The position numbers and the translations under genes were made by a program. Shown in pieces: positions 7,103 to 62,295 of a DNA stretch of 64,000 nt (positions are counted from its first letter, which is position 1; every line of letters starts with the position of its first letter). The notes under the pieces are model-generated. The model did not search any database, had not been told where the DNA came from, and saw only the letters and a list, made by a program, of their open reading frames with translations. The stretch comes from Microthyrium microscopicum (Eukaryota): positions 1,437,345 through 1,501,344 of the forward strand of contig MU004237.1 in the NCBI GenBank assembly GCA_010405405.1. The letters are read 5' to 3'.

Positions 7103-8754
7103 ATGACGAGCACTACTCTCAAAACCCCCGCCACGGGTGATTATGAGCAGCCAACCGGCCTGTATGTCTTTCCCCCCGAAGCACGAGTCAGATGGAGAAC
7201 GAAAACTAACTGACGTTTCTAGCTTCATCAACGGCGAGTTCGTAAAGGGCGTCGAAGGCAAGACCTTTGAGGTCATCAATCCCAGTGACGAGTCCGTCAT
7301 CTGCTCCGTCAGCGAGGCTACCGAGAAGGACGTCGACATTGCCGTCAAGGCTGCTCGTGCTGCCTTTGAAGGAGAATGGCGAAAAGTCACTCCTGAAGAT
7401 CGTGGAAAGTACCTTCACAAGCTCGCCGACCTCTTTGAACGCGATCTCGAAACTCTCGCCGCCATTGAGACGCTAGACAATGGCAAAGCTTTCTCTATGG
7501 CCAAGGGTGATGTTGGCATGTGTGTCAGCACACTCCACTACTACGCTGGCTGGGCAGACAAGATAGAGGGTAAGGTTATTGATACCAACCACGAGACTTT
7601 TAACTACGTCAAGAAGGAACCAGTAAGTCTTAACACACGAAGCACTCTTGTGGTGAAGTCTAATATGACAGATCGGTGTTTGCGGTCAAATCATTCCATG
7701 GAACTTCCCACTTCTCATGTGGGCATGGAAAATCGGTCCAGTCCTTGCCACTGGCAACACAGTCATTATCAAGTCCGCCGAACAAACACCTCTCTCCGCT
7801 CTCTACGCCGCCAAACTCGTTAAAGAAGCTGGTTTCCCCAACGGTGTCGTCAACATCATCTCCGGCTTCGGCAAGGTCGCTGGTGCCGCCATCTCCTCAC
7901 ACATGGATATCGACAAAGTTGCCTTCACTGGCTCCACAGTCGTTGGTCGCCAGATCATGAAGGCTGCTGCCAGCTCCAACTTGAAGAAGGTCACCCTCGA
8001 GCTTGGTGGCAAGAGCCCTAACATTGTCTTTGACGATGCTGATATCGACAACGCCATCTCCTGGGTTAACTTTGGTATCTTCTTCAATCATGGCCAGTGC
8101 TGCTGTGCCGGCTCAAGAGTCTATGTGCAAGAAGGTATCTACGACAAGTTTATGGCACGCTTCAAGGAGCGAGCATCCAAGAACGTTGTTGGTGATCCAT
8201 TTGGCTCCGATACCTTCCAGGGACCGCAAGTCTCACAAGTACAATTCGACCGCATCATGAGGTAAGCCATTTCCAATCCTTTCACCATTTACAGTCACTA
8301 ACATTTCCTCAGCTACATCGAACACGGCAAACAATCCGGCGCCACCGTTGAAACCGGCGGCAAACGCAAGGGTGACAAGGGTTTCTTCATCGAGCCCACC
8401 ATTTTCTCCGGCGTCAGCGAAGACATGAAAATCGTTCAAGAAGAAATCTTTGGCCCCGTCTGCTCCGTCAGCAAATTCAAGACCGCCGAAGAAGTCGTCA
8501 AGGCCGGCAACAGCACTACTTACGGCCTCGCCGCTGCCGTACATACCTCCAACATCAACACGGCCATTGAGGTGTCAAATGCGCTCAAGGCTGGCACTGT
8601 CTGGGTCAACAGTTACAACATGCTACACCACCAATTGCCATTCGGTGGCTACAAGGAGAGCGGTATTGGACGGGAGCTTGGTGAGGCTGCACTAGAGAAC
8701 TATTTGCAGACAAAGACTGTGTCTATCAGACTTGGAAATGCTCTTTTCGGTTAA
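7103..8754 (+). CDS. aldA: Aldehyde dehydrogenase (NAD+), 4 exons
   Basis: Spliced product has [38 protein letters not shown] and PFGGYKESG; canonical GT-AG introns near 7162, 7623 and 8262. Confidence 0.95.
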
Positions 8755-11023: not shown

Positions 11024-11191
11024 CAGCTAGATTCAAGACAGCGAGATTCAAGACAGCGAGATTCAAGACAGCGAGATTCAAGACAGCGAGATTCAAGACA
11101 GCNNNNNNNNNNAGATTCAAGACAGCGAGATTCAAGACAGCGAGATTCAAGACAGCGAGATTCAAGACAGCGAGATTCAAGACAGCTAGAT
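11024..11191. repeat. 15-bp minisatellite (AGATTCAAGACAGCG)n, at least 10 copies, spanning an assembly gap (N 11103-11112)
   Basis: Perfect tandem copies visible on both sides of the N run. Confidence 0.95.
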
Positions 11192-12820: not shown

Positions 12821-13558
12821 CTAGCTCCATCTCAGTTGAATACTGGTCAACTTTGCAGTCCAAGGTACCGAAGAGTTAGAGCTTCGATGTCTATTTTTTT
12901 GTGACATTATCTAAACCTGATCGGGTCAGTTCCATATATGCCCGTGGTATCTTCTGGCCTACAGAAGTAGCTTGTTGCTCGCCACATTTTGGGATGTTGG
13001 CAACGCAGTTTGAACACCAATTTCCTGTTTTGCATTCAATTAGAATCACCGGCCAATTGTCAAGCTAAGCACCGTTAAAACCCTGATTCATGGAGAAGGG
13101 ATCTGTCTGATTTTCTCACAAGTCGACTCTGGCTTAACCTCCAACCCAAGTATAGATACCTCGTCATAATAGAGCTGTAGCGTGATAACTCGCTAAGGAC
13201 GACTGTAAGTCATTTCATTGGCAGAAAAACGTTGCTCACTTGCTCATTAGGCGGCTTTTCGAAGTTGGTAGCTCGTGGTCCTAATCGCAGTAATACCATC
13301 AATTGATACTCATGAGCTCATTAGCCGTGGATCGAATGGTAGAGTAGTTATATTGGTGAAAGCCTGGAAACAGGTCCTCCGCGCCTCTGGGGATTTAAGC
13401 AGTAAATAAGAGAGGATTTAGCCAAATATTTCCAAACATGAAGGATATGTAAATTAAAACTGTCAAGACTTAATGATATGAACGGAGACTTGAACGATTC
13501 GGTTCGAAATACAAAGTACATAAGAGCCAACACCCGGACGCCCTGCTAAATCGCTCAT

Positions 13559-16128
13559 TCATCTTCTCCGGATCCTGATTATCACCAACGACAGAGTGAG
13601 CAAAGCAAACACTAGAAGCAAATACTGCGTCTGTGTTCTTATGACTTGCTGGGACAGTTTCTCCCTTCCCCACCTGTGAACCTTATGGTAGCTCTTGAGA
13701 GGTACAGGTTGATCGGGCAGTTCTTCCCGTCCCCACTTGTGAACCCTGTCATAGGCCTTGATAGGTACACGTATTCCTGCGTATAATTCACGGCGGTGTA
13801 GTGGAGGTCCTTCCCTAATGCTTCTTGACTTGATGTCGAAACAATCATATTCCACGGGATACGTGCGCGTGCAGAGTGGCCAGATGACTCTCGTGTGCAT
13901 GTCGCAGAAGAGGTTCTCGCGACGATTGTAGAAATCTGGGCCATGTCACATTGGATCATGGCAGCATCCGTGAACAGTGTGGTTAGGGTAAATTGTGTCG
14001 ATAAGTGTGCCATTCATTGGTTGAGTTCCGTCAGCTCTCTTGGCTAGTGGAGGCCCTTGAGGAAGCCATCGTTTCGGTTTATGTTCCCTGCTGGGATCAA
14101 GGACGTTGTTGAAAAAGCCCAATTTTTCACCTGTGTAGCCTTCTTCAATGAGATGGCGTGCAAAAGTTTTGTTGAAGCTGGCAGGGGCGAGGGGAATGTC
14201 TCTTAGATGCCAGTCTGTATGTTTGAACTGATCACTATAAAGCAGGCCTGTGCCATCGATGATCCTTTGCTCGTCTTTGTCGACAGATCCACGCGACTGA
14301 TCTTCGTATTCCAGCTTTGGTTCGAAAACTGGAACATTTCGCAGCTTGTCCATTTCAAACCACATTTGAAATCTTCCTGGAGAACAGACTAGTCTCGGGT
14401 CAATATTGAATCGGTCAATGCGTTCTTTAGTGGGCCTCATGTCTCGAATATGCATTGACATGCCTTGGAAGGGAATGCCGTCTTGACGTTGATCCTCAGC
14501 AAGCCAGACGCAGACTGGTTTGTGAGTGTATGATGGATCTTTTGAGTCGGCTGTGATGGTAACGTCGGAATATCCCCACTGTAGATTTCATCAGTATGAA
14601 GTTACAATCAGAGGCAAAACACCTGCAAAGACCATTTGCTCTTTCGGCGGTGAAGACGTTAAATACCCATTGCATTCGATGGCGCCCATATCACCAGAAT
14701 ATTGAACGGCTTTAATGGGAGCCATCGAGTGCGATGGGAGATGTGATGTTTTCTGTTCAAACAGATATTGTCAGGAGATGTGGTTTATTTGACACGGGGA
14801 TTCTTACCATGGCACCGCAGGCTCGGCCAATGTCACTATCAAAGCATGTCAACAGCTGTTTACAAGGCTCAACGGACTGGAAAAACAAATGGCGTGATCT
14901 CAACAGCTTCGTTGGCTCCCATACGCTACGATCTACTATACTCTTCAGTAGCTTTGATGGGAGCCATCATCGCTGGAGGTAGCGTGCCTCTCATTTTGCC
15001 AACCCGCGGACAATGGTTTTTTTCGGCGGATGACTTACCCTGTCCAATGGAAAACTTCATTGCTAGGCCATCTAACAGAGATGTGTTGGATGCATATGGC
15101 ATCATCGTTAGTGTCAGACTTTGTAAACTGTATATATTCTGCTTGGTTTCCAGGAAAGTGCGGCGAGTGGTGGATAGTATGATATCGTGTAGCTCCTGCA
15201 GAGATATGTCCGGTTCTGTAAGGCTTCTTGCCTTCAACGAGCCTGAAGTTTGTCAGTAGATTGTTCCGAGGAGAGCTGACGCACTTTGGGAAACACTATT
15301 TGACTTTTGGAGATGGAGTCACGAAATAACTTTGAGCCTTCGCATCTGGTGGGAACCATCGCATTCGACAAAGAACGCATACTATAGAAGCCACCAACTG
15401 TGCTGGCAGCCACCAACTTACCTGCGACCTGTATTGTCGAGAAGGTTAATCCAGGGACCACCAGATTTGTTTGTTCCATAACCATGCTGGCCGGTAACAT
15501 TCTCCTCATTGTGCTGTGCGTATATGTCGCCAGTTTGCCCAACCGTTATTCCAAGCGCAGTGGCCTCATCAACTCTTGGAGGTGCTTTCTTACCCTCAAC
15601 TACATTGGCGATTGAAAAACCTATGTTTACACCCAAGTTGACGAGGCCTATCACAGCGTTAAATGCATCCATTTTTGTGATCGGGCCCTTTTCTGCTGGA
15701 GTTCCTCTGTGAAAAGGATTGACTAAGGTGCCATTGATCCACGTATTGTTGATGATCGTGTTTACGTTGAGCCCACCCTTCACCAGCAATGGTCCGAATC
15801 TTGTTAACCAAGCTAGCCGGTCAGTCTCGTTGTAGTGCTTTTCAGGAATTTGCTGGAGGTTGCTCGGTCCAGGAGCCGAAGGAGGTACTCCAAGAATATC
15901 TAAAAGTGTACTCAAGTTGTAACGAGAACCCGGGCTGAGAGAAGAAGGGGCGAGGCTGATCAAGTATTCCTCTTCTTCTGGTTCTTCGTTGTCTATCTCC
16001 TGATTTGTTGGCAACGGGTGAGCAGTCTGAGACACGCTGCTGACACTAGGTTTCTCACCGTAGAAGAAAGAGGAGTAGATCCTGCCTGCGAGGAGAAGTA
16101 TGCAATAATGATAGCGATGGACCAACAT
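13559..16128 (-). CDS. Secreted Cys-rich fungal hypothetical protein, 4 exons (16128-15422, 15242-15039, 14835-14808, 14578-13559), with an in-frame TGA at 13946-13948
   Basis: GT-AG splicing in phase gives GGPWINLLDNTGRR..QAEYI..DDAICIQHISVRWP..WTGDIGRACGAMWGYS..PVCVWL..GMSMHIRDM..HGPDF..FCDM..WPLC..CFD. I recognise this pattern from an uncharacterised secreted ascomycete family (recall, not a database result). Hydrophobic N-terminus. Confidence 0.8.
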
Positions 16129-17745
16129 AGGAGTAGAAGACCAAGGCTCAGAAGGTGTAAATTTTCACCAAAGAGCAATGACACACTGATAGGACGGGGA
16201 ACTTAATGAGCAGTCTTATCTGATACACTGCTATTCCTAAGAATGGTTCAACTTCGAATGAATTCACGACTCCGAGGGACCCTCTCTTCAATAGACCAGG
16301 TGACGATTTCTAGTCACCCTCAATCAAAGGAGACCCTGAGGAGATGATAAGAAACTTCTTTTTAAGGACGCGTTTAAAACGGGATGATTGTCAAAGTGCT
16401 CGATTGCTGCGGCAGTCTTTCCAGGTATTGGTCGTCGAGCAAGAGTCATGAAGGGCTCTTACCACTGTGTTGATCAGCTTAACTCCAAATATCTTGAAGA
16501 AACTAGAGTAGCATGCGAAGATGAGCAGAGATGTATCCTATCGTAACTACTACGTGCTCAACCAACGGTAGAGTTGCGTGTCAGACGATGCATAGCGGAT
16601 GAGGCTGGCGGCCTGAAAGAGCAATATCTATCAACTCGGCTTGGTAGAAGCCAACGTCTCGAGCAGCCGGAAAAAATTCCACAGGTCACGATAGGTATTG
16701 GATTTGATTCTCGTCTAACAAGACTTGACCTCTGTTCGCCGTGGTCAGCTTCAATCGACGAGATATGATTCAGTCCATGTGCGCAAACTTTGGTGCATGA
16801 GGATCAAAATTTTGATTGAAAGTCTTTTAATAATACCCATACAATTTGTTTTCAATGTGTGAGTGGTCGAGAATGAACATAACATGTAAAACCGAGAAGT
16901 GGATTGTATCAAAAAACGGTCCCATGCGATTGAAAATGAGCCATCTCAGCCTCTACAACCAGAGATAATGCTCAGCTAAACACTTTCATGGTCGAAGCTA
17001 TTGATCCAATCAGTAGTCACAAACCCAAAATAGCACCGCTAGGGTTCCCAACTAAAGTATCGTATGATACATATCAAAGTCCGAAGTTGAAAAGACAACA
17101 TCATATGAGCGTACCTCCTTATACAGAATGAATCGTCGATGTCGATGAAGATCATCATTGTCCACTCTGGACACACGATATAGTGCAAGCCAGATTCCAT
17201 CTCTTGCCTAACAGACTCAAACAATTGTTTCTGACAGCAGGATACGTGAAGTGGGTCCGGTTTCCTGCACTTTCTCATGCTTCCTAACGATATGCCAACC
17301 GATAGAAGAAATGGCCGGCATGTGCCAATTAACTTCGATGGCTCTCACACAAGACTACATGGTAATGAGTGCGCTCAGCACCACAAAGGGCGTTCAGACT
17401 ACCACAGCTTATCGAATGCGCTGGCCACTTTAGCACCTTTTGTTTATCGGGGTTCGTGGGAGCCATTGGAGCTGATGGAGACACACCAGGTATTTTGTCT
17501 ATTCCTTGATATGCTTCGTTGACGATCGGTCGTCTGTTGTCACAGCCTTGCTGTAACCAGGCCTTTTTTCGCTTAAAGCTACAATAAGAGCGCCGGCTAC
17601 TATATTCAGATGAGCTGGTGACTCTAGAGGTCTTTCCACACAACAGAATACCAAATATCACGTCAACGAAGCAAAACTCGTCCTTGATCTGACCTAAAGC
17701 TTGTTTAACATGTAATTTGTTGTTCATTTCTAAAGTACAGCGCTG

Positions 17746-19188
17746 TCATTCTTCATCTCTATTACTGTCTAAGGGTATGTAATCCACATCTTTCGAGTCT
17801 TTCCCACCACTCTGCACCGAGTCTTTTTGAAGAGCTACATAAACGGCCGATCCAACAATCAAAGATGATCCCACTATTGTCAACAGCCCAGGCACTGTTC
17901 CCCATATAACCAAGTCAAAGGTGACTGCAAAAAGCATTGCTGAATAGGACATATTGGTTGCCCTTGAAGACTTTTCGGCACCAAGGCCTGATGCTAACAG
18001 AGCTTGCTATAATTTGATCAGCATACTACGTGAAAAGCTCTTTGGATAAGGAACTTACCAGTATTATACCGCTGGCGCTTAAGACTGTGATGTAAAACCA
18101 ATCTAAAGCCGTAGAGGGCAGTGCAAATGGCAGGCCAGGGATGATCGTCAACATAATCCCCGATATTATTCCAACGCAGACATTCAGATAATTCACGGAT
18201 ATCAGGGGATGTGCCCTGGTTCCTATATATCTGAGGCACACAAGTTGTGTTCCACCGCCCAAGACTCCTAGCATAACGCAGCCCACTCCTATAAGTCGTT
18301 GTTGCGGTGTAATCAGATCTGAAGTCTGGGATCCAGAACCATGCGTAACTTCCCCGATGCCACTAGCCGGTGGTGGTGTAGCCGCACTGCCAGAACTGAA
18401 CACGGCCGTTGGTTGAGATATCAAGACTACACCGAAGAGGGATATCATAGTTGCGATTTGTTCCAAGCGAGTGAAAGGCTCTTTGAGGATGTAGGAGCAG
18501 GCCAGACAAGCAAGCGGCGGAGCTAGGAAGCCTATAACTGTGGCGTCGGAGAGAGGAAGATATTGGAGGCCGAAAAACATGCCAGATACGCCAACAAAGC
18601 CAGATACTCCACGGAAAGCGAGCACAAAACGAACGGATTTATGGCCGAGAGGTTTCTCTGGAATGTTGGAGTAGAAGATATATATGGATGTAACGATTGT
18701 AGATATTATCATTCGGTTGAAGAGGATCTGTAAGCTAATGTTTAGCTTTTCATGAATCTTTATAATTTGTTTTCTCTTACTTGAAATGGGTGCATTCCTT
18801 TGCGATCCGGGCCGCCTTGCTCTAGTAATCTTGCAGTGACTCCCATCAGAGTCCCAAAGAATTGTGCGAAAAAGACATATGCTAAACCCCAATTTCTTTG
18901 CCAGAATGATCGAAGTTTTGATTTAATGCCATGCTGGTGACTGTTATCCGTGGAACATAATTGAGCTTCCGTCGAATCCAACTCGGTGAATATCGGTCGA
19001 CTATAGCTTTCCAGAGTAGAAACGGATATGTCAGACAAGGCTGGGCTGGCGAATCGGCGTATTTTAGGAATCGTCAGATGAGATGATTTCTGGAGCTCAA
19101 TATCTTTTGCTGTTAAGCTCAAGTTATTCGGACTTATGCTTCGAATACGATCATCGTATGAGAGTCTGATAGGTTTGAGAGAATCCAT
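17746..19188 (-). CDS. EamA/DMT-family drug-metabolite transporter
   Basis: GMHPFQ, LAFRGVSGF, YLPLSDATVIGFLAP, LKEPF and GSSLIVGSA motifs; multiple TM segments; 3 exons. Confidence 0.9.
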
Positions 19189-61137: not shown

Positions 61138-61499
61138 GCCGGGAACTGGAAGAATCTAGTTCGTTCCTTCCATACATGCAATCTTGTGATCAAAGGCCAG
61201 AAATGGCATTTTGAGCCTAAGGCCTCTCGAATTGCGATACATTGTAGGGTTGGAAGTGCAAAACCATTGAGATTGTGTGGAATCAATTCGCGCAACCTGA
61301 CCTCTGAACTTTTTTTGTGTTGACCTAAGCGTAAAACATAAGCATCAAGAGGTTGGATGAAAGCTAAAGCTATATAATCAAACAGCAGAGCAGAGGGAAG
61401 CCGAAATGGGACAGAGAAATGGCCCAAGAAGCCTTCAAAAGGCAGAAATGCATATGTCCCTTTTGCAAAGCATGAAGTTTGTGTCAATTTGCATGGCGG

Positions 61500-61714
61500 C
61501 CAGCGGCATGGCAAAATAAATGGCGTACTCCCATCAGCTCTGATGGCGCCCAGAGGCTACGGTCTGCTATCGAGTGCTTTATTTGCCATAAAGGGCGTTT
61601 GGATTGGGAGTATTTATCAGATACGATGGGAATTAAAGCACCTTTTGGTTAGCAGCGCTGGTGGTAGCCATCAGAGTTGATGGGAGTACGCCATTTAAGT
61701 TGCCATGCCGTTGG
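61500..61714. mobile_element. Foldback/MITE-like element with about 48-bp inverted arms (61500-61547 and 61667-61714)
   Basis: CCAGCGGCATGGCAAAATAAATGGCGTACTCCCATCAGCTCTGATGGC versus the reverse complement of the right arm CCAACGGCATGGCAACTTAAATGGCGTACTCCCATCAACTCTGATGGC (4 mismatches by hand count). Exact ends and TSD not resolved. Confidence 0.7.
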
Positions 61715-62295
61715 GCGGCAGAGAACAAAATGGCGCTGTTGAGGCCGTTTTGTGAGCCGAGATTTCCCCAGCCATTCAATGTACAAAAATCGTAAAACAG
61801 CCGATGTTTTTGGAGGGCCATGATTGGATCTGAGCTAGAAGGTGGCTTTGGGGGTGGCTGGCGCACCTCAACCATGCTCTTTCATTGGTGGCCAGAAGTC
61901 ACAAAACTAACCCGGATTACGCGGGGAATGATCTAATATTGTTGTTTCGGGTGATGAAATCTTGACGGAAACCATTTTCCCCATTAAAGCTATTTAAATA
62001 TTTCGCAGCTCAATACCCTAGCGCGCGGGCAACATATAGCATACAGATTCGCTTCCTTGATCAGACGACTTTGAACATGTATGAAGTGCTTTCCGAGCTC
62101 AATGCTTTGCGTATCCAGCTCACACTCTTCAGTTGTAAGAGACAAACCTAGTTTAAGGATACTGGGTGTCTTTTCTTTATGAATTCATCCAAGAATATTT
62201 GGCAGTACACGGCATGAATGAATGCAACCGCAGAGTCTATATCCCAGTGCTTTCGCTAGCAGTACACCTCATTCATAGTCAAATCGCCTTGTATA

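Follow-up and report, generated by a model that had tools for sequence, protein, structure and literature searches.

Three long introns of a Microthyrium microscopicum gene and a palindromic 213-bp repeat: probable insertion into older introns rather than introner-like intron creation

Three consecutive, unusually long introns in one gene of the Dothideomycete Microthyrium microscopicum raise the question of whether a mobile element created them or entered introns that were already there. The gene, whose function is unassigned, lies on the minus strand of a 64-kb stretch of contig MU004237.1 (the window), and its introns 1 (15243..15421), 2 (14836..15038) and 3 (14579..14807) measure 179, 203 and 229 nt. 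A crude GT..AG finder run on the window as a rough check of the usual intron length gave 47 candidates, including 10 distinct sites of 48-53 nt, and by this rough measure the three introns are 3-4 times as long as usual. One candidate intron of 49 nt (7623-7671) separates two open reading frames (ORFs) that match adjoining parts of the aldehyde dehydrogenase profile of Pfam. Introner-like elements of Dothideomycetes were reportedly the subject of van der Burgt et al. in 2012, and a preliminary description of this DNA had proposed that one such mobile palindromic family created or repeatedly invaded all introns of the gene. The reading that we favor, with some reserve, is that copies of a miniature inverted-repeat transposable element (MITE) or MITE-like element were inserted into pre-existing short introns, and our verdict is that of an undescribed but conventional MITE-type family in older introns and not of an introner-like family.

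The motif GATGGYTCCCA, said to occur on the transcript strand of each intron at a similar position, was recovered in all three. Exact matches occur three times in the window, all on the minus strand, which is the transcript strand, with one per intron at positions 62, 71 and 82 of introns 1, 2 and 3; 0.07 matches are expected in the window and none of 100 shuffled sequences reached three. If one mismatch is tolerated, the count rises to 10 matches versus 2.12 expected, the extra ones being inverted pairs at 17337/17457 and 61542/61662, which belong to two intergenic elements, e17 and e61. Copy e17 (17290..17514, element at 17296-17508) is located 1.2 kb upstream of the start codon of the gene, and e61 (61495..61719, element at 61501-61713) is the best preserved copy. 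When aligned, both are exactly 213 nt long with termini CARC.G...C..YTG, and at these homologous termini both intergenic copies are bordered by perfect 6-bp direct repeats, ATATGC on either side of e17 and GGCGGC on either side of e61. By estimate, each 6-bp match has a chance of about 1 in 4096, and it is very unlikely that two independent matches in the same register arose by chance. While e61 forms a near-perfect hairpin (self-reverse-complement BLAST E 6.5e-19; DNA fold z -10.57; 51 of 62 aligned columns of the outer arms match), e17 is decayed (DNA fold z -0.41; arms 37/60). Short length (213 nt), non-coding content, terminal inverted repeats, target-site duplications of fixed length and multiple dispersed copies are all present, and the anatomy of e61 and e17 is that of a MITE. 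The element ends CARC.G and C..YTG have no GT or AG splice ends.

Within the introns, a MITE copy of 140 nt occupies 14870..15009 of intron 2 (termini CAACGG...CCGCGG; the central ~70 nt are missing), a repeat copy of a related subfamily occupies 14637..14767 of intron 3, with its hairpin core at 14666-14738, and a repeat remnant is found in intron 1 at roughly 15340-15368, with the motif at 15350-15360. A test profile trained solely on the four intergenic arms of e17 and e61 detected both arms of intron 2 (E 2.3e-9 and 1.2e-4), and the next two matches outside the training set were the arms of intron 3 (E 0.49 and 0.68), placed ~40 nt apart on opposite strands, an arrangement with an estimated chance of order 1e-3. 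The matches of intron 1 to this profile had E 3.1 and 6.9. In a BLAST comparison intron 2 and e61 were 75.7% identical over 70 nt, and a profile search of the 64-kb window gave no copies beyond these five. Judged by these matches, intron 2 clearly belongs to the family, intron 3 probably does, and the remnant in intron 1 would be a presumed member. The proposal of one mobile palindromic family in all introns is thus upheld for intron 2, probably for intron 3, and by many genomic copies, but in intron 1 it meets a remnant only.

Folding of the intron RNAs was compared with 200 dinucleotide shuffles of each intron. Intron 2 gave z -2.52, with 1 of 200 shuffles as good, and intron 3 gave z -3.22, with none as good; the fold of intron 1 (z -0.94; 30/200 shuffles fold as well) is no better than chance. 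The statement that each intron folds back on itself is therefore correct for introns 2 and 3 but not for intron 1, and the reported 21/24 match of the intron 3 arms (14666-14689 and 14715-14738) was reproduced, the two 24-nt arms being 88% complementary. Stable hairpins in introns 2 and 3 are also what would be seen if these were functional intronic RNA genes conserved as such, for example a miRNA-like precursor, a snoRNA or a splicing-regulatory structure, and a plant miRNA precursor of Rfam has a sub-threshold match at 14655-14744 (30.6 bits, compared with a gathering score of 65). However, no Rfam family reached its gathering score over 13500-18000, the same sequence is present in intergenic DNA with transposon hallmarks, and loop and overall length vary widely from copy to copy; we consider such a function very improbable.

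The distribution of the repeat outside the window was evaluated with Logan contigs of four sequencing runs that were aligned to 13800-17700 at ≥80% likeness. Runs X1 and X3 are DNA runs of the probable source sample, X5 is RNA by the guess of the tool and X6 belongs to another study. The locus itself is represented in X1 and in X3 by two long contigs each, with no differences, and these two are among 36 aligned records in X1 and 48 in X3, where 28 are less than 90% alike. Summed depth in X3, with a baseline of ~930-980, reaches 2829, 8068 and 4952 over 14586-14978. It is 1313 over 15241-15371, and over 17337-17598 it attains 2869 and 1669 (2869 at 17337-17467). Among the matches listed there are alignments at 14663-14763 in intron 3, where many other genomic contigs match, and at 14868-14939, 14870-14922 and 17452-17502 as well as two loose ends at 15340, and about two other genomic contigs match the intron 1 remnant (15340-15363) at ≥80%. 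This pile-up on the arms indicates that dozens of other contigs carry arm-like sequence and, therefore, that the family is real. The preliminary description had staked its proposal on the existence of further family members genome-wide, and contigs of both X3 and X1 supply them. Run X6, of low depth, contains pieces identical to the locus, so it does not represent a relative with an empty site.

Other genomic copies vary in architecture. One is without the 36-nt loop of the intron 3 hairpin (14678-14715), and another joins an intron 1-like arm to an intron 3-like arm with 20 other letters in between (15363/14715), which suggests several subfamilies or rearranged copies. Further copies of the repeat appear in contigs of X5 whose word depth is high (428, 342 and 241; matching 14663-14744 and 17432-17502), and if this run, RNA by the guess of the tool alone, is what it seems, some family copies may reside in abundant transcripts, in untranslated regions or retained introns. 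In metagenomes, a search for the two-arm pattern returned at least 120 loci, and in 0 of 120 was there an arm-profile match at E ≤0.01; these loci were rejected as family copies and are unrelated hairpins, mostly from GC-rich DNA.

With these data, two other origins of the likeness among the introns can be weighed. That three unrelated long introns happen to share an 11-mer has next to no probability: intron 1 taken alone is indistinguishable from chance, but the count of exact motifs and its absence from shuffled sequences, profile matches with E down to 2.3e-9 and the pile-up of genomic contigs on the arms all speak against coincidence, and for introns 2 and 3 chance likeness is refuted. Alternatively, segmental duplication or intron transposition might have multiplied one hairpin intron inside the gene. 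All three carriers are in one gene, introns 2 and 3 have an 18-nt stretch of 94% identity in common, and same-gene duplications are a recognised class in the available text of PMC3609843. Intron 2 is, however, closer to e61, with its 70 nt of similarity, than to intron 3, with only these 18 nt; no duplication of flanking exons was seen, and the arms occur in dozens of other genomic contigs. We regard copying within the gene as quite improbable.

A palindromic transposon residing in introns can mimic an introner-like family by length, motif and folding alone, and the two are told apart by whether the repeat extends as far as the splice sites, by the presence of target-site duplications at intergenic copies and by what is left of the intron once the repeat has been excised. 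In intron 2 the sequence outside the copy amounts to 29 nt toward the donor end and 34 nt toward the acceptor end, and these 63 nt of unique sequence carry GTAAGT, a branch site and AG. Among the matches listed for other genomic contigs none extends to a splice site; on intron 2 they start at 14868-14870. When the protein was compared with a profile of homologues, no gap was observed at the junctions of introns 2 and 3 and a 2-residue insertion was present in a variable stretch at the junction of intron 1. No coding sequence is missing at the junctions of introns 2 and 3, and from the comparison as a whole the flanks of the introns would not be former coding sequence. Unique flanks of about normal intron size, element ends without splice sites and a protein free of gaps at introns 2 and 3 together argue for insertion into an existing short intron. 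The idea that introner-like elements had created the introns finds no support at intron 2, where the repeat ends short of both splice sites, nor at the intergenic copies with their duplications; insertion into existing introns, which had been offered as a fallback, fits better, as the unique flanks add up to a normal-sized intron.

The history of the locus may then be pictured as follows. A short, non-autonomous, MITE-like DNA transposon, canonically 213 bp long, nearly all palindromic, producing 6-bp duplications and dispersed in the genome, would have entered three existing short spliceosomal introns of a single gene, which thereby grew from roughly 50-60 nt to their present 179-229 nt. With donor, branch site and acceptor in unique sequence outside it, the element would be removed by the spliceosome as passive cargo, and the RNA hairpins would be a by-product of its inverted repeats. 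Local reinsertion of a cut-and-paste element, together with tolerance of insertions in non-coding DNA, could have led to the clustering, and the gene was possibly already decaying, given an in-frame TGA described below, so that insertions would be tolerated. We infer both the order of events, intron first and insertion later, and the local hopping. The occupation of all three introns of one gene is a curious point but not in itself a new mechanism.

Several observations weigh against this reading. A stretch of 3 kb holds four of the window's five copies; two of the five are intergenic, and the three intronic ones share one gene. With one copy fixed, at least three of the remaining four would land in the same 2.9 kb with a probability of about 4e-4. 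Random insertion does not account for the occupation of every intron of the gene, and local hopping has to be assumed. No target-site duplication is visible at the copy in intron 2 (AAGGCT versus ACAATG, 1/6 match), and intron 3 without its recognisable repeat still measures ~98 nt, more than a typical intron. Neither arm match of intron 3 is individually significant against the profile from intergenic arms, and intron 1 is not significant at all, as profiles built without it never give E < 0.28. The copies are highly divergent, with pairwise identities over aligned columns of 57.8% (e61/e17), 63.2% (e61/intron 2) and 51.3% (e17/intron 2), so that family assignment rests on arms and profiles; copies as divergent as these appear to be old, or of different subfamilies. 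Transposase Pfam families were absent from the 28 ORFs scanned out of the 37 of at least 160 aa in the window. Finally, a 644-nt contig of X5 (14101-14744) runs unspliced through the acceptor of intron 3.

Introner-like elements of Dothideomycetes are longer than regular introns, have a stable predicted structure and are multi-copy (PMC3609843, PMC4457414; published work is cited here from the parts of each source that were available). The present introns resemble them in fungal class, in their length of 179-229 nt, in belonging to a multi-copy family and in the stable fold of two of the three. If insertions of the family into coding sequence had made the three introns, the outer intron sequence would be decayed element, and length, structure and rapid decay are indeed ascribed to such elements in the available text (PMC3609843). 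The motif at similar offsets in all three introns, their length of 3-4 times the usual value together with the two stable folds, the 2-residue insertion beside the intron 1 junction and the spacing of two introns by just 28 nt, which would be odd if they were ancient, are all in keeping with this origin. On the other hand, the mobile unit as bounded by target-site duplications in two copies has no GT/AG ends, and the repeat in intron 2 stops 29/34 nt away from the splice sites, a boundary shared by other genomic copies among the matches listed. In introner-like elements it is the whole intron with its splice signals that is repeated, whereas here the repeat is internal (14870-15009 in intron 2), the three introns share no end sequence, 5' or 3', other than the splice consensus, and two of the five copies are intergenic and flanked by target-site duplications. 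Collemare et al. (2013) kept high-copy introns out of the introner-like class when these were regular introns with an inserted repeat, according to the available part of that paper (PMC3609843). In the supplementary table of a survey of 2022 (PMC9860276), the row of M. microscopicum reads 0.0 0.0 0 0 and the rows of Alternaria read 0.0 1.0 0 1; with the meaning of the columns presumed from the available part of the table, the former is read as no introner family called, and the survey thus appears to score no introner for this species. A literature search found no paper joining 'Microthyrium microscopicum' and 'introner'. Taken together, we judge creation of the three introns by introners or introner-like elements to be unlikely.

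Transposon-derived introners, reportedly treated by Huff et al. in 2016, resemble this locus in that introns house a DNA element bearing both inverted repeats and target-site duplications. They carry or recruit splice sites at the element boundary or at the duplication, as stated in the available text of Gozashti et al. (2022; PMC9860276), whereas the element boundaries here are 29-34 nt inside the splice sites and without GT/AG ends. An early or cryptic DNA-transposon introner, with clustered insertions into coding sequence and splice sites recruited beside the element, could have made all three introns, but the probability that we assign to it is low indeed. If true, this would be an ascomycete introner that bears duplications, and its products would include the intron pair that isolates a 28-nt micro-exon. 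Ascomycete introners are outliers, generally without inverted repeats and duplications, in the available part of the survey (Gozashti et al., 2022; PMC9860276), so it would fall in a group described there as free of such signatures and in a species apparently scored introner-free. The internally symmetrical (stw)introns of Hypoxylaceae are likewise fungal introns with inverted repeats, in that case of 45-55 nt, which are multi-copy and might form long double-stranded RNA (Fekete et al., 2021; PMC8469720). In the available portion of that paper their integration is seamless, with no flanking duplications and with a symmetry that spans the intron termini; in contrast, duplications exist in the family described here and the symmetry is internal.

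The closest likeness of the proposed MITE family is to fungal MITEs with 6-bp duplications of the hAT6/IS3EU type, with which it shares a short, non-coding body (213 bp) with long terminal inverted repeats, 6-bp target-site duplications and numerous diverged copies scattered over introns and intergenic DNA. A difference is that no autonomous partner was seen among the ORFs scanned in the window (28/37). The element termini presumably resemble the hAT end motif YARNG. From the available text, both hAT6 and IS3EU elements make 6-bp duplications (PMC12730594), and Styx, an IS3EU-related element of Zymoseptoria, another Dothideomycete, combines 6-bp duplications with clustered reinsertion near its source (PMC10853768). 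For IS3EU of Pucciniales the ends given in the portion available are TAYGG..CCRTA (PMC12730594), and these are not matched by CARC.G...C..YTG. Candidates for the superfamily of the element are the hAT6 and IS3EU types. A BLAST of e61 against a plasmid collection gave no match, a target that is uninformative for this element. The 213-bp element with its 6-bp duplications can be used for masking or annotating this genome.

The introns on which this analysis depends differ from those of the public annotation. All three begin with GTAAG and end with YAG, have branch-like sites (CTGAC/TTGAC/CTGAT) and are in phases 2, 2 and 0 for introns 1, 2 and 3; when they are taken out, a single open frame of 523 codons results, with its first ATG at 16128. 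The gene model, on the minus strand throughout, thereby consists of exon 1 (15422..16128, from the first ATG), exon 2 (15039..15242), a micro-exon of 28 nt (14808..14835) that encodes (G)DIGRACGAM, and exon 4 (13946..14578), which ends at an in-frame TGA (13946-13948). Exons 1 and 4 show 100% identity to a deposited M. microscopicum hypothetical protein of 501 aa, here P0001. In the deposited model intron 1 is kept, and 14579-15076 is spliced as one intron of 498 nt with a weak GTTAGA donor, which omits the last 39 nt of exon 2 and the micro-exon.

An exhaustive profile search gave 49 proteins at E ≤0.001 including the query, that is 48 relatives, and a scoring profile was built from 12 homologues with the query left out. 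With this profile, the three-intron model scored 179.8 bits and the deposited two-intron model 129.4 bits, inclusion of the micro-exon being worth 50 bits. When P0001 was aligned with the 12 relatives, it showed a gap exactly at their conserved block V.WP....W.GD.G..CG.DW, and the extra exon sequence of the three-intron model encodes this block, its residues matching W.GD.G..CG.DW; no other block is as well conserved in the family. Because of the higher score and the restored block, the predicted three-intron coordinates, as judged by homology, are right and better than the public annotation, and the introns of 179, 203 and 229 nt are as the preliminary description had placed them. The deposited model can be corrected by addition of the 28-nt micro-exon and by flagging the in-frame stop. 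Coverage by X5, again RNA by guess alone, extends over 13800-14030 and 14101-14744 and leaves exons 1-3 without cover. No Pfam family was matched by the protein or by six relatives, and in a scan of metagenome contigs with a 6-sequence alignment 29 stretches matched, none of which was confirmed by tblastn as a relative of the protein.

The TGA at 13946-13948 on the minus strand stands in frame where homologues have a sense codon, and it is agreed on by all four sequencing runs wherever they cover it. Past it, the conserved C-terminal cysteine-rich domain (GPDF..LFCDM..WPLC..CFD..KAY...W) goes on in frame at 13700-13945 on the same strand, and with X placed at the TGA the profile score is 168 bits. 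The codon would be either a recent nonsense mutation, in a decaying gene, or a read-through stop. Tandem Repeats Finder returned 0 rows for 13400-17800. A diverged tandem duplication of ~21 codons, unreported by that program, is present in the translation downstream of the TGA at about 13610-13750 on the minus strand (..PIKAYDRVHKWGREELPDQ / ..PLKSYHKVHRWGREKLSQQ). The window as a whole is ordinary gene-dense DNA, with SNF2, aldehyde dehydrogenase, rhomboid, EamA, SURF4, HET, SET and other genes, and at 11102-11112 it contains a short N run (10 N counted) that may be an assembly gap or a masked stretch.

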